Source: Clostridiales bacterium (lineage in GTDB: Bacteria > Bacillota > Clostridia > Ch29). Taken from it: DNA of 62,406 nt. The DNA is taken from NCBI GenBank assembly GCA_012523075.1, contig JAAYJF010000112.1:1-62406 (forward strand). Direction: 5' to 3'. Below, one piece after another: positions 3,157-51,069 of this stretch. A model generated the notes under the pieces. That model saw only the letters and a list, made by a program, of their open reading frames with translations, did no database searches and was not told the DNA's origin. How positions within the stretch are numbered: the first letter of the stretch is position 1; every line of letters begins with the position of its first letter. The translations under genes were made by a program, and so were the position numbers.

Positions 3157-3181
3157 GAAAAGAAGGGAGGAAGTATTGTTT

Positions 3182-3466
3182 ATGGGAAGGTCACTAAAAA
3201 AAGGGCCCTATGTTCAACCCAAGCTTTTGGAGAGAATAGAAAAGATGAATAAAAACAACGAAAAAAAGGTTCTTAAGACCTGGTCGAGGGCATCAACCAT
3301 CTTCCCGCAAATGGTAGGCCATACCATAGCGGTGCACGATGGCAGAAAACATGTCCCTGTTTATATAACCGAGGAAATGGTGGGTCACAAACTGGGCGAA
3401 TTCGCGCCTACCAGAACCTTCAGGGGGCACGGTTCCCACACCGAAAGGTCAACGTCACTCAAGTAG
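3182..3466 (+). CDS. rpsS: 30S ribosomal protein S19
   Basis: [11 protein letters not shown]...; the ATG at 3182 lies after the GGGAGGA RBS. Confidence 0.96.
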
Positions 3467-7389: not shown

Positions 7390-7929
7390 ATGTCCAGGAT
7401 TGGTAAGTTACCCATAGAGATACCCGGCGGGGTTGAAGTGACTATAGGCGAAGGCAATTTCATAACGATAAAGGGCCCGCTGGGTAAAATGGAGCGCAAA
7501 ATGCACAGGGATATGGTTATTACTAGGGAAGACGATAAAATAGTAGTAAAAAGGCCCTCTGACAACAAGTTCCACAAATCCCTTCACGGGCTAACCAGAT
7601 CGCTTATCGCCAACATGGTGGAGGGCGTGACAAAGGGCTACCAGAAAACCCTTGAGATAAACGGGGTAGGATACAGGGCACAAAAACAGGGTAAAAAACT
7701 TGTCTTGAGCGTAGGATATTCTCACCCGGTGGAGATGCTTGATCCGGAGGGTATAACCGTTGAGGTGGAAGGTACCAACAAGGTTATGGTAAAGGGTATC
7801 GACAAACAGCTGGTGGGCAATTACGCCGCGAAAATCCGAAGCGTGAGGGAGCCCGAGCCCTACAAAGGAAAGGGAATTAAGTATGATTACGAGCATATCA
7901 GACGTAAGGTAGGCAAGACCGGCAAATAG
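7390..7929 (+). CDS. rplF: 50S ribosomal protein L6
   Basis: [15 protein letters not shown]... Confidence 0.96.
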
Positions 7930-7950
7930 GTAAGAAGGGAGAGAACAAGC

Positions 7951-8319
7951 TTGCTTAAGAAAATGGTTAGAAACGAGGCCCGGAAGAAGAGGCACAGGGT
8001 GGTAAGGAACAAGATACACGGCAGTGCCGAAAGGCCGCGGCTTAACGTATACAGAAGTCTTAACCATATTTACGCTCAGTTGGTAGACGATGATGCCGGA
8101 GTTACACTGCTGGCGGTTTCCACCCAGGATAAGGAAGTGAAGGAAACGGTGGAGAAGGGATATAATCTGGATGCTGCCAAGGCGGTGGGCAAAGTGGTGG
8201 CAGACAGGGCGCTTCAAAAAGGGATAAAAAACATTGTCTTCGACAGGGGCGGTTACAAGTATCACGGCAGGGTTAAGGCCCTGGCGGATGCAGCCAGAGA
8301 GAACGGCCTGAATTTCTAG
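7951..8319 (+). CDS. rplR: 50S ribosomal protein L18
   Basis: TTG start; translation and operon position. Confidence 0.94.
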
Positions 8320-41562: not shown

Positions 41563-42906
41563 ATGGGTAAACTGTTTGGCACCGACGGTGTCAGGGGTAT
41601 AGCGAACGAGGAATTAACACCAGACCTTGCCTTCAAGCTGGCCCGGGCAGGATCAGCTGTCTTAGGCAACGGAATGAAAAGGCCGAGGTTTGTACTGGGA
41701 ACGGATACGCGTCTTTCTTCGGATATGCTGGAAAGCGCAATGGTCGCGGGGCTGTGTTCGGCAGGCAGCGATGCGGTAATGGTGGGCGTTGTTCCCACGC
41801 CGGCGATAGCCTACTTGATAAGGCATCTTGGCGCCGATGGTGGTATTGTGATATCTGCTTCCCACAATCCTGCCCAGTACAACGGGATAAAATTCTTCGA
41901 CCGTCACGGTTACAAGCTGGACGATGACATTGAAGAGGCCATAGAACAAATAGTGTTTGAGGGAGCCGACGGGGCACCATGCACCGGCGCTGACCTGGGC
42001 AGAAAAATAAACGAAACAAGGGGAATAAGGTACTACGCGGACTTCCTCAAGGATACGGTATCAGGGGACTTTGGAGGCCTGAAGGTGGCCGTTGACTGTG
42101 CCAACGGGGCAGCCTATAAAGTCGCTCCCCTGGTATTGACGGAACTTGGTGCTAAGGTAAGCGTCATAAACGACAGCCCTGACGGTACAAACATAAACTC
42201 CCGGTGCGGGTCCACCCATCCTGAGGAACTAGCAGCTTTTGTAAAAGAAAAGGGCTTGGATTTAGGCCTTGCCTTTGATGGTGATGCCGATCGGCTTATT
42301 GCGGTGGACGGTAGAGGTGAAATAATAGACGGTGACTATATAATGGCGGTCTGTGCCCGCAGGCTTAAGGACCAGGGCAAACTTGCGGGGGATGCCGTGG
42401 TTGCCACCGTTATGTCCAACCTGGGGCTGCACAAGGCCCTGGAGAAAATAGGCTGCAGGGTGGAAGAGACCAAGGTGGGAGACAGGTACGTGCTTCAGAG
42501 GATGATGGAAAAAGGGTACAGCCTTGGGGGAGAGCAGTCGGGGCATATAATATTCCTGGAACAAAACACCACTGGCGACGGCCTGCTTACAGCATTGCAG
42601 CTGCTGGACAGCATCAGGTATTTCGATAAAAGCCTTGCAGAGCTTTGCAGTACGATGGAGAAATTTCCCCAGGTATTGGTCAATGCAAGGGTGAAGAATT
42701 CCAGGAAGGAATGCTACATCCAGGATGAAGTTGTTCGTAGCGAAATAGAAAGGGTACAAAACCAGCTTGAAGGTAACGGCAGGGTGCTAATAAGGCCTTC
42801 GGGGACCGAGCCCCTTGTGAGGATTATGCTGGAGGGGCAGGATGCCGGGCAGCTTAAGCTGTACGCTGAGAATCTTGCAAAACTCATTGAAAGCCGTTTG
42901 GCCTAG
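41563..42906 (+). CDS. glmM: phosphoglucosamine mutase
   Basis: MGKLFGTDGVRG...SASHNPAQYNGIK. Confidence 0.96.
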   Translation: MGKLFGTDGVRGIANEELTPDLAFKLARAGSAVLGNGMKRPRFVLGTDTRLSSDMLESAMVAGLCSAGSDAVMVGVVPTPAIAYLIRHLGADGGIVISASHNPAQYNGIKFFDRHGYKLDDDIEEAIEQIVFEGADGAPCTGADLGRKINETRGIRYYADFLKDTVSGDFGGLKVAVDCANGAAYKVAPLVLTELGAKVSVINDSPDGTNINSRCGSTHPEELAAFVKEKGLDLGLAFDGDADRLIAVDGRGEIIDGDYIMAVCARRLKDQGKLAGDAVVATVMSNLGLHKALEKIGCRVEETKVGDRYVLQRMMEKGYSLGGEQSGHIIFLEQNTTGDGLLTALQLLDSIRYFDKSLAELCSTMEKFPQVLVNARVKNSRKECYIQDEVVRSEIERVQNQLEGNGRVLIRPSGTEPLVRIMLEGQDAGQLKLYAENLAKLIESRLA

Positions 42907-42923
42907 GCAGCCGAGGACAAGCG

Positions 42924-42952
42924 GGGACAAGGGACGGTTCTTTGTCCCTTTT
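42924..42952 (+). terminator. rho-independent terminator, identical 29-mer to 21412-21440
   Basis: gggacaagggacggttctttgtccctttt. Confidence 0.75.
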
Positions 42953-43029
42953 ATCCGTTATGTAAAGGAGGTGATGCATTAGAGAATGTTATTGGAAAAG
43001 AGGGAGATGATAACAAACATTGAGGGATA

Positions 43030-43275
43030 CTAAGCGCCAGGGCTCCTTTTTCAACGGGCAATTGTGCGAATTGTGTGCCAAAAACGCGGGCGCTAGAACG
43101 CCTACCAATCGCGCATTGTGTGCAACGTGCCGCGAGTATCTTATAAAAGGAGTTGACGAGGTCCGGGGCTTATCGAGGTTTTCGGCGGATGGTCCCGCGG
43201 TATACTGCTACCGTAAAGGCCCCACAAATCCACCGGGTGACCGATGGGACAAAGGGGGCCGGGCAGTCAACAATA
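43030..43275 (+). ncRNA. glmS ribozyme: glmS ribozyme
   Basis: A/GCGCCAG cleavage-site motif at 43033. Core GUUGACGAGG...UUAUCGAGGUUUUCGGCGGAUG...CCC...GGUGAC...GGGACAAAGG matches the remembered Thermoanaerobacter/Bacillus ribozyme core. Confidence 0.88.
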
Positions 43276-43300
43276 CTTTTTAAAAGGAGAAAATACCACC

Positions 43301-44410
43301 ATGTGTGAAATAGAAAAAAGCGGCTATCCCCATTATATGCTTAAGGAGATATACGAACAGCCGGAGGTAATAAAACGAACACTAAAAGAAAGACTGATAC
43401 CGGGAAGTGAGGGAATAGTTCTTGATGGTATAGGGCTGACCCAAAGAGAGCTGGACGGCGTGCACAGGATGGTAATAGTCGCCTGCGGCACATCCTATCA
43501 TGCGGGGCTTGCTGGCAAATACCTTATTGAAAGTTTAGCCGGGATACCGGTAGAAGTGGAGATAGCATCCGAGTTCCGGTACAGGAGCCCGGCGGTGGAC
43601 AAAAACAGCCTTGTTATAGTAATCAGCCAGTCGGGGGAAACCGCCGACACTCTTGATGCATTGAGGACGGCAAAGGGAAAAGGCGCCCGTGTTCTTGCCA
43701 TAACAAATGTGGTGGGCAGCACAATACCCAGGGAAGCGGACTATTCCATTTATACCTGCGCAGGCCCCGAAGTTTCGGTGGCTTCCACAAAGGCCTACAC
43801 GTCGCAGCTAATAGTCATCTACTTAATAGCGTTGCAACTGGCTTATATAAAGGGAGGTATCGGCCGGGAAGTATACCGGCAAATGTTGGAGGCGGTAAAC
43901 AGGCTTCCGGAGCAGGCGCAAAAGATGCTGGACTGTTCACAGTCAATGAAGGAACTGGCCGGGAAACATAAGGATATAGAAAAGATTGTATACCTGGGTA
44001 GGGGCCTTGACTATGCACTGGCCCTTGAGGGGTCGCTTAAGTTCAAGGAGACATGCTATATTCATTCGGCTGCTTATCCGGGGGGCGAGTTCAGGCATGG
44101 ACCTATTGCCCTGGTGGAGGAAGGACTTTTGGTAGTTTTGCTTGCAACCCAGGACGCTCTTATTGACAAAACCCTTGCCAATTTAAAAGAGGTAAAGGAC
44201 AGGGGAGCCTACGTGGTGGCCCTGGCCAAGGAGGGCGACGGGGAAGTAGGTAAATTGGCAGACAGGGTAGTATATATACCCGATATTTTCGATGAGTTCA
44301 CATCGGCGCTGGCGGTAATACCGCTCCAGCTTTTTGCCTATTACTCAGCGGTAGCCCGGGGTCGTAACGTTGACAGGCCTCGGAGCCTTGTAAAAAGCGT
44401 TACCGACTAA
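43301..44410 (+). CDS. glmS: GlmS-like protein consisting only of the two SIS (isomerase) domains; glutaminase domain absent
   Basis: MCEIEKSGYPHYMLKEIYEQPEV... aligns with the start of the GlmS isomerase domain (E. coli ...DKGIYRHYMQKEIYEQP), and the protein ends ...RPRSLVKSVTD like GlmS. 369 aa against about 600 expected. Confidence 0.85.
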   Translation: MCEIEKSGYPHYMLKEIYEQPEVIKRTLKERLIPGSEGIVLDGIGLTQRELDGVHRMVIVACGTSYHAGLAGKYLIESLAGIPVEVEIASEFRYRSPAVDKNSLVIVISQSGETADTLDALRTAKGKGARVLAITNVVGSTIPREADYSIYTCAGPEVSVASTKAYTSQLIVIYLIALQLAYIKGGIGREVYRQMLEAVNRLPEQAQKMLDCSQSMKELAGKHKDIEKIVYLGRGLDYALALEGSLKFKETCYIHSAAYPGGEFRHGPIALVEEGLLVVLLATQDALIDKTLANLKEVKDRGAYVVALAKEGDGEVGKLADRVVYIPDIFDEFTSALAVIPLQLFAYYSAVARGRNVDRPRSLVKSVTD

Positions 44411-44484: not shown

Positions 44485-44760
44485 GTGGATAGAAAACTAA
44501 AATGTCTACGTTGTGGTAATCCGATGGAATTCGTAGAAAGCGAAAAAATACAATTGGGAGAAAGAGGAATACCTTTTTCTCACGTTATAGCAGGGGCATT
44601 AGAGGTTGATATCTATTATTGCAAAGAATGCGGGAAATTGGAATTTTATCATACAAAGGATGCGCTTCTTACAAAGATTCAATGCCCCAGTTGTGGGAAA
44701 ACCCATGACAAAGACTACCGAAAATGTCCATTCTGTAAATATGATTACAGGGCTAAATAG
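44485..44760 (+). CDS. small double zinc-ribbon protein
   Basis: Four CxxC pairs (CLRC, CKEC, CPSC, CPFC); GTG start after GGGAGG. Confidence 0.6.
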   Translation: MDRKLKCLRCGNPMEFVESEKIQLGERGIPFSHVIAGALEVDIYYCKECGKLEFYHTKDALLTKIQCPSCGKTHDKDYRKCPFCKYDYRAK

Positions 44761-50874: not shown

Positions 50875-50937
50875 ACTGTTCATTAAATACTCTATTGATT
50901 AATTGTACCACTATGATATAATCCAATTGAACCGAAT

Positions 50938-51069
50938 AATTACAGGGGAGCTGGGCTTTAACCGGCTGAGAGGGAAATATTCCGACCCTTATACCTGATC
51001 TGGGTAATGCCAGCGTAGGAAGTAGACTTTGCTGCCCGTTACCCGTTTGAGGTACGGGCAGTTTTGGTT
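50938..51069 (+). promoter_or_regulatory. TPP (THI-box) riboswitch with terminator expression platform
   Basis: GGGGAGC...CTGAGAG...ACCCTT.TACCTGATCTGGGTAATGCCAGCGTAGGAA, then CTGCCCGT...ACGGGCAG plus TTTT. Confidence 0.9.

Follow-up and report, generated by a model that had tools for sequence, protein, structure and literature searches.

We analyzed a 62,406-nucleotide (nt) stretch of DNA from a Clostridiales bacterium (contig JAAYJF010000112.1; hereafter, the window, meaning this stretch at its full length), in which a glmS ribozyme precedes a glmS gene that encodes only the isomerase half of the enzyme. GlmS is considered to perform the obligatory first step to the amino sugars of peptidoglycan, is a drug target, and is known from textbooks as an amidotransferase that does not use free ammonia. 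The short gene lies behind glmM, whose product is the enzyme consuming glucosamine 6-phosphate (GlcN6P). The locus comprises the following features.

41563–42906, + strand: glmM (phosphoglucosamine mutase), with four PGM_PMM Pfam domains; upstream of glmS in every related locus
43022–43270, + strand: glmS ribozyme, of the GlcN6P-activated self-cleaving RNA class (RF00234, full model)
43283–43289, + strand: ribosome-binding site AAAGGAG, 11 nt before the ATG, read in the sequence; the motif is kept in all related leaders
43301–44410, + strand: short glmS, from the ATG at 43301 to the stop at 44410; 369 amino acids (aa), MCEI followed by the 2xSIS isomerase half

The ribozyme recognized in the preliminary description of this locus was confirmed by a match to RF00234 over model positions 1–167 of 167 (91.8 bits against a gathering score of 37, E = 5.7e-20). 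The predicted cleavage motif, A/GCGCC, would be cut between 43033 and 43034, and none of the core segments GUUGACGAGG, UCGGCGGAUG, and GGGACAAAG is disrupted. The 3′ end of the ribozyme is 30 nt from the short glmS ATG, placing it in the 5′ leader of an atypical open reading frame (ORF). Across 11 ribozymes of the lineage, AAGCGCCAG and the cores are invariant, and 14 of 40 predicted pairs show compensatory change, short-copy ribozymes included. Ribozymes before short copies (window, L012, L016, L096, L014, and L015) scored 86–96 bits versus 91–103 bits before full-length copies, and their cores are 84–92% identical between species whose synonymous divergence ranges from 0.4 to >2. By model, cleavage motif, and leader position, the predicted RNA is thus an ordinary member of RF00234.

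Next, we examined the ORF. Its product is equivalent to E. coli GlmS residues ~244–607. Pfam detected two SIS domains and nothing else, with no GATase domain; the NCBIfam model TIGR01135 (glmS) matched over positions 243–605 of 607; and the best solved-structure match, PDB 1MOQ, aligned end to end (E = 4.8e-88). These alignments agree with the preliminary description of a Met-Cys start joined directly to the isomerase half. The TIGR01135 score of 434.2 bits, obtained from the C-terminal 60% of the model alone, exceeds the equivalog cut-off of 418.05, so automatic pipelines will name the protein GlmS. Nevertheless, it cannot be a glutamine aminotransferase despite passing this cut-off. Scores against the models of stand-alone deaminases were 152.3 bits for NagB-II (NF046059, cut-off 430) and 122.8 bits for GlmD (NF041128, cut-off 580), while the architecture is that of a stand-alone 2xSIS protein without glutaminase. 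The missing domain had been said to be encoded in no frame of the glmM–glmS spacer, and the same was found here: hidden Markov model (HMM) and tblastn searches gave no match to the GlmS glutaminase domain in the 394-nt spacer (42907–43300) or in any frame of the whole window (best E = 0.89).

Origin of the short gene by tandem duplication

In four species-level lineages, glmM is followed by a ribozyme, a short glmS, a second ribozyme, and a full-length glmS (609 aa), each gene with its own RF00234 ribozyme. The related loci fall into the following states.

Short and full-length copies in tandem: L012/L013, L016/L118, L096/L113/L116, and L119
Full-length copy only: L097, L098–L100, L111, L112, and L121–L124
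Short copy only at the locus, ribozyme intact: the window, with a zinc-ribbon ORF and gcvTHP downstream
Short copy only at the locus, ribozyme intact: L014 and L015, with the POR operon inverted downstream
Short copy only, ribozyme without its 5′ half: L011 (= L115) and L114

The junction can be read directly in L016. The short copy begins ATG TGT GGA ATA/GAA AAA AAT GGC TAT, and the adjacent full-length copy begins ATG TGT GGA ATA/GTT GGA... and reads ...GCC GCC GCC/GAA AAG GGG GGC TAT at codon 244. The junction MCGI/EK is therefore seen in the DNA, indicating that the short gene is a tandem duplicate minus codons 5–243, in frame. The retained Met-Cys had been taken as a hint of an in-frame deletion, and this comparison of the L016 copies supports that view. 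Several members of the clade have Gly, Asp, or Asn in place of Cys2, which in the short proteins is a non-conserved relic.

A focused tree showed the short proteins as a monophyletic clade (100% bootstrap) on a long stem, sister to the full-length proteins of the same lineage within a 100% clade that excludes other Clostridia. Ribozymes before short copies and those before full-length copies formed separate orthologous groups, and the synonymous distances (dS) of short and full-length genes agreed between genome pairs. The tree, the separate ribozyme groups, and the agreeing dS together indicate that both units were inherited vertically after one duplication. As reconstructed from these comparisons, the unit of ribozyme and glmS was duplicated in tandem behind glmM in the ancestor of this uncultured Clostridia lineage. 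The upstream duplicate evidently then lost codons 5–243 in frame, and several species still keep both copies. Judged from the locus states, the full-length copy is gone from the locus in the species of the window and, independently, in at least one other branch. In the glmM tree, L097, which has the full-length copy only, nests among short-copy carriers, suggesting that the short copy can also be lost.

Within L016, the last 30 leader nt and the first 12 coding nt of the two copies (1665–1706 and 3158–3199) are identical; their ribozyme cores differ by 14%. The identical leader ends suggest local gene conversion or a strong constraint on the translation-initiation region.

In one sister lineage with 86% protein identity (L011:9860–10000, = L115, and L114), the glmM–glmS spacer is just 141–145 nt. 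Of the ribozyme, this leader retains the P4 part at the 3′ side alone, and the cleavage site and core are deleted. The short gene there has evidently escaped ribozyme control.

We then searched for another glmS in the organism. Neither the locus nor the remainder of the window contains a full-length glmS. Each full-length glmS locus examined in the lineage adjoins glmM or a short copy, without relocation. With the L016 full-length protein as the query, all relatives down to 76% identity were listed, and their groups belong to other species. A full-length GlmS of the window's species would be expected at ~94–96% identity to L016; none was among the matches listed, although this species is sampled on at least 30 contigs. 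These negatives, for which the listing was not exhaustive, suggest but do not prove that the window's species has no second glmS. When the glutaminase domain of the neighboring full-length GlmS was used as a query for a stand-alone partner or a full-length copy in the large protein database, the matches were fragments of at most 67% identity and did not include the query's own protein, so we give this search no weight. In a scan of GTDB species genomes, L016 was the only clade member among the matches listed.

Three sets of candidate partners were also considered and rejected. P0023, a full-length GlmS on 22 contigs, is the product of a different organism, which has a glmM of its own, and comes from other samples. 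P0266 and P0267, 76% identical to the full-length copy of the lineage and considered as partners for L014 and L015, lie in other genomes beside glmM, as does P0264.

Conservation and remodelling of the short protein

Independent assemblies recovered the identical protein, with the same layout of glmM, spacer, and gene, on at least 23 contigs. These were produced by different projects and assemblers, partly from ENA metagenomes of food waste and anaerobic digesters and partly in several Logan runs. The 90% cluster of the window protein comprises at least 30 contigs of up to 192 kb. A large protein database yielded twelve further short proteins, all SIS-only and 68–86% identical to the window protein, so that the short clade spans 68–100% identity overall; the nearest full-length GlmS proteins are 63–65% identical to the window protein. 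The ratio of nonsynonymous to synonymous divergence (dN/dS) was 0.12–0.18 among short copies and 0.036–0.045 for full-length copies of the same genome pairs, with similar dS. The short copy is thus under purifying selection, about three times weaker than that on the full-length copy. Synonymous divergence is saturated between the two subclades of the short clade.

By its appearance, with 239 codons cleanly removed and Met-Cys kept, the gene could be taken for an artefact of assembly, a deletion that arose very recently within a strain, or a pseudogene in decay, but the same sequence in at least 23 independent assemblies, the twelve diverged intact relatives, the dN/dS values, the saturated synonymous divergence, and the conserved ribozyme and ribosome-binding site make this scarcely credible, and we regard the artefact and pseudogene readings as excluded. 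Accordingly, the suggestions of an assembly deletion or a recent deletion made in the preliminary description do not hold. Its further idea of a pseudogene backed up by a second glmS fails as to the pseudogene and is half right as to the backup: a full-length copy is adjacent in sister species, but none was found in the window. An old SIS-only clade routinely associated with the ribozyme, an outcome named there as a refutation, does exist and counts against a recent accident; it arose by duplication of both ribozyme and gene. From its conservation, the locus is best described as a glmS ribozyme before a conserved, selected GlmS paralogue without the glutaminase domain, both of them probably functional.

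Residues were then compared using E. coli GlmS numbering, mapped via a 3OOJ alignment. K485, E488, H504, and K603, whose catalytic roles have been described (PMC9272926), are invariant across the short clade, as are the CGTS, SQSGET, and VASTK loops. In contrast, seven positions are switched in 13 of 13 short proteins versus 0–1 of 78 full-length ones: I489T, S490C, E495A, L502F, K503R, A602V, and V607D. The first five all fall between E488 and H504, and the last two, together with loss of E608, fall in the C-terminal tail. The C-terminus had been described as that of a normal GlmS. However, the tail reads ...PRSLVKSVTD, whereas the canonical ...PRNLAKSVTVE is present in 72/73 and 78/78 full-length sequences; the altered tail occurs in all 13 short proteins and in none of the 78 full-length ones. 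The window protein thus lacks two features that define GlmS, the glutaminase domain and the canonical tail. According to the literature, the C-tail of GlmS acts as the lid of the isomerase site, contributes to the ammonia channel, and mediates communication with the glutaminase domain (PMC10087520, PMC3224219).

A search of 1.84 billion cluster representatives revealed nine other Met-initiated SIS-only proteins of 363–376 aa that are 43–50% identical to the window protein (P0387, P0402, P0404, P0421, P0456, P0457, P0486, P0489, and P0512). All passed the NCBIfam PRK00331 (GlmS) cut-off but fell far short of those for NagB-II and GlmD, and P0486 also begins MC. The changes seen in the window clade recur among them as follows.

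I489T: 8/9
Non-Ala at 602: 9/9
Tail other than SVTVE: 9/9
Phe-Arg at 502/503: 3/9

The window clade is much nearer to the full-length GlmS of its own lineage (61–65%) than to any of these nine. In a broad neighbor-joining tree of 89 sequences, support was 2–62%, and because of this low support, the tree does not decide whether the nine groups arose independently.

Putative function of the short GlmS

The best reading, held with moderate confidence, is that the short GlmS is a putative GlcN6P synthase that uses ammonia in place of glutamine, remains under normal GlcN6P feedback, and would suit digesters rich in ammonia. The site for fructose 6-phosphate (Fru6P) and GlcN6P is kept whole (K485, E488, H504, K603, and the phosphate loops), and the enzyme, without glutamine-derived ammonia, would aminate Fru6P using free NH3/NH4+. 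We infer this amination because solvent ammonia is the only nitrogen source left to the site. The chemistry would be that of the SIS-fold GlcN6P deaminase reaction run in the synthetic direction. GlcN6P would trigger ribozyme cleavage and thereby switch off short glmS, as for an ordinary glmS. Furthermore, the remodelled E488–H504 segment and C-tail may adapt the former channel mouth to solvent ammonia, and ammonia-rich digesters would make a free-ammonia route feasible while sparing glutamine.

Several observations are consistent with this proposal. Conservation of the ribozyme before the short copy argues that GlcN6P feedback has been selected, as expected of a GlcN6P producer, and negative feedback by GlcN6P together with the link to glmM fits a producer rather than a consumer. 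The habitat names, food waste and anaerobic digesters, suggest high ammonium. The GlcN6P deaminase reaction is reversible and is the sole source of GlcN6P in Giardia and Entamoeba (PMC4281351).

Other points weigh against the ammonia-using synthase. Short and full-length copies coexist in at least four species, so the short copy need not suffice alone, and in these species it may be only an accessory; the constraint on it is about one third of that on the full-length copy. L011 and L114 lost the 5′ half of the ribozyme, indicating that feedback is not indispensable. A second glmS, nagB, or amino-sugar salvage could possibly lie elsewhere in the genome of the window organism, and the ammonia levels of the source samples are assumed from sample-type names. 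An isolated isomerase domain that reportedly makes GlcN6P from ammonia is that of the Candida enzyme. Full-length GlmS, by published account, differs from other amidotransferases in that ammonia cannot serve as its substrate (PMC9272926).

A more far-reaching version, which we offer only tentatively, is that the short GlmS is the sole GlcN6P-forming enzyme in the species of the window, L011, L014, and L015, an ammonia-dependent descendant that took the place of glutamine-dependent GlmS yet stayed under the glmS ribozyme. The shared substitutions (I489T, non-Ala at 602, a new tail, and K503R) would then be a recurrent recipe for making a free-ammonia synthase out of the isomerase half, used again in at least several other bacterial lineages.

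Alternatively, the short GlmS could be a GlcN6P deaminase resembling GlmD or NagB-II, converting GlcN6P to Fru6P and ammonia in catabolism or as an overflow valve. The GlmS isomerase half has stand-alone relatives of the SIS fold, and the characterized ones are deaminases (PMC4281351, PMC10201695); the architecture of two SIS domains and no glutaminase is the same, and since the reaction is reversible, the same protein would show deamination in vitro. Such a function is unlikely here. The argument raised earlier against a catabolic deaminase stands, as a GlcN6P-activated ribozyme turns the gene off when the substrate is abundant, and this ribozyme is kept before the short copy in six lineages. 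The loci examined have glmM upstream together with the glmS ribozyme, and not nagA, chitin, or GlcNAc-uptake genes. The scores against the NagB-II and GlmD models are well below their cut-offs, and the focused tree derives the short GlmS from the lineage's own glmS.

The short GlmS may instead act mainly as a partner or modulator of full-length GlmS, for example, in mixed dimers or by buffering Fru6P/GlcN6P, which we consider rather improbable. In its favor, at least four species have the short and full-length genes side by side, each under a ribozyme; selection on the short copy is the weaker; and GlmS dimerizes via its isomerase domains, with His504 acting across the dimer. However, all 13 short proteins keep every catalytic and substrate-binding residue. 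The short gene and ribozyme also persist without a nearby full-length copy in the window, L014, and L015, and among the matches listed, none had the identity expected of a full-length partner for these species.

Finally, a role chiefly as a hexose-phosphate isomerase, from Fru6P to glucose 6-phosphate, is very improbable: isolated ISOM domains are said to retain hexose-phosphate isomerization (PMC3224219, citing Olchowy 2007), but GlcN6P-specific feedback and the glmM link would be unexplained for a glycolytic isomerase, and the protein has kept both K603, the lysine that forms the Schiff base, and the amino-sugar site.

We compared the ammonia-using synthase proposed here with known systems. 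The canonical, B. subtilis-type ribozyme-regulated glmS (~600-aa GlmS) has the same RF00234 core, cleavage site, and leader position, the same glmM–glmS neighborhood, and the same isomerase active site, and in sister species the canonical unit lies directly downstream. In contrast, the window enzyme is without the Ntn glutaminase (residues 5–243), its C-tail and E488–H504 segment are remodelled, and its Cys2 is not conserved. The E. coli GlmS isomerase domain (residues 241–608; PDB 1MOQ/1MOR/1MOS) has nearly equal boundaries (368 versus 369 aa) and shares the sugar-site residues; however, 1MOQ is an engineered fragment with the native KSVTVE tail, whereas the window protein is the product of a natural, selected gene with seven substitutions and a shortened tail.

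GlmD of Thermococcus/Pyrococcus and NagB-II of Shewanella are, like the window protein, 2xSIS enzymes without glutaminase. They are, however, distant, ~40 residues shorter, and found in a catabolic context, whereas the window protein is an offshoot of true GlmS; to our knowledge, neither is ribozyme-controlled. Both carry out the reversible chemistry between Fru6P plus ammonia and GlcN6P (PMC4281351, PMC10201695). NagB-I of Giardia and Entamoeba, which have no GlmS, shows that Fru6P and free ammonia can be the physiological source of GlcN6P for cell-wall amino sugars (PMC4281351), although it has an unrelated fold, belongs to eukaryotic parasites, and is governed by transcriptional induction rather than ribozyme feedback. 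Literature searches, whose coverage excluded the key glmS ribozyme survey, found nothing relevant on a truncated or glutaminase-less glmS; as far as these searches show, a ribozyme-associated SIS-only GlmS clade is undescribed.

A short GlmS that is at once selectively kept, feedback-controlled, and alone at its locus would challenge the view that GlmS cannot use ammonia, and would mean that in vivo its isomerase half is able to work as a synthase dependent on ammonia. Sister species with both forms, the full-length form only, or the short form only provide a ready-made experiment, and the candidate adaptive substitutions make a short list at the mouth of the former ammonia channel. In annotation, short proteins of the GlmS type are likely labelled glutamine aminotransferases. 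In ecological terms, the proposal points to nitrogen economy in ammonia-rich digesters. The locus is thus of interest to GlmS enzymology and to surveys of riboswitch–gene association.

Flanking features

Three further features were noted around the short gene.

42924–42955, + strand: terminator-like hairpin after glmM (GGGACAA, 11-nt loop, TTGTCCC, then TTTTAT), read by eye
43050–43142, + strand: P1-loop insertion of the ribozyme, ~93 nt (about 89–103), from the RF00234 alignment
44485–44760, + strand: 91-aa double zinc-ribbon ORF (two CxxC...CxxC motifs), directly after short glmS

The hairpin after glmM weakly suggests that the short glmS may have its own transcript start. A scan for consensus promoters and terminators found nothing convincing in the glmS leader; the hairpin went unreported because the loop limit of the scan is 8 nt. 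The P1 loop is 103 nt in the window and in both L096 ribozymes (L096:6146–6393 and 7723–7971) but just 7–12 nt in L012, L014, L015, L016, L097, and L098. The inserts of the window and L096 are related in sequence, and that both ribozymes of L096 carry one points to gene conversion or to an ancestral extension lost elsewhere. The insertion folds as an extended hairpin that is not more stable than shuffled sequence (z = −0.58), and we therefore do not call it a structured module. Farther from the glmS locus, the window also has a TPP riboswitch (50934–51038, 72.4 bits) and, barely over its threshold, an S10-Clostridia leader of ribosomal-protein genes (177–254, 35.5 bits against 35.1).

The zinc-ribbon ORF occupies the position at which sister species carry the second ribozyme and full-length glmS. 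L011 has a homologue (83% identity) on the downstream side of its short glmS, beyond an sbcCD pair that is inserted between the two genes. In L014 (3052–12983) and L015 (3152–13091), a block from the POR operon to a sigma-54 activator, with cdaR and cdaA, is inverted downstream of short glmS. In L112 (1–9717), the POR block precedes glmM and is oriented the same way. The inversion breakpoint right after the short gene of L014 and L015 may have removed or displaced the full-length copy. The contigs of L014 and L015 both end ~190 nt upstream of glmM.

Behind full-length glmS, 24–25 nt after the stop codon, six loci carry the end of a mobile element that starts with TGTATAATTC, followed by three 20-nt direct repeats (AAATAAAGTTCRCTCC).

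L096: 9856–9925 and 10141–10325
L012: 13426–13467
L097: 5230–5264
L111: 11866–11920
L113: 12215–12249
L116: 9–63

In L096, three inverted copies of the repeat lie ~250 nt beyond the element end. The L016 flank, GGGACGGTTCTTTTGATTAC, is the same but without the element and is therefore an empty site. The element end was not found behind any short copy in the fetched loci or in the window. Tn7-type elements target the 3′ end of glmS, and the placement seen here resembles such an insertion at the glmS attachment site, to judge by analogy. Contigs often end at the element site, and the element may explain both these contig breaks and the proneness of the full-length copy to rearrangement.

Some gene calls at these loci differ from the ORF described above. 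In-frame starts upstream, inside the ribozyme (window 43244–44410; P0354, P0007, P0008, and P0011), give calls of 388 and 407 aa, such as MAPWYAATVKALQIHR..., and these N-terminal extensions are translated ribozyme, not protein. JGI gene calls likewise run some short glmS genes into the ribozyme. Conversely, the L014 gene (P0010) was called too short; an ATG further upstream yields MCKLIDKTMGYPHF, like L015.

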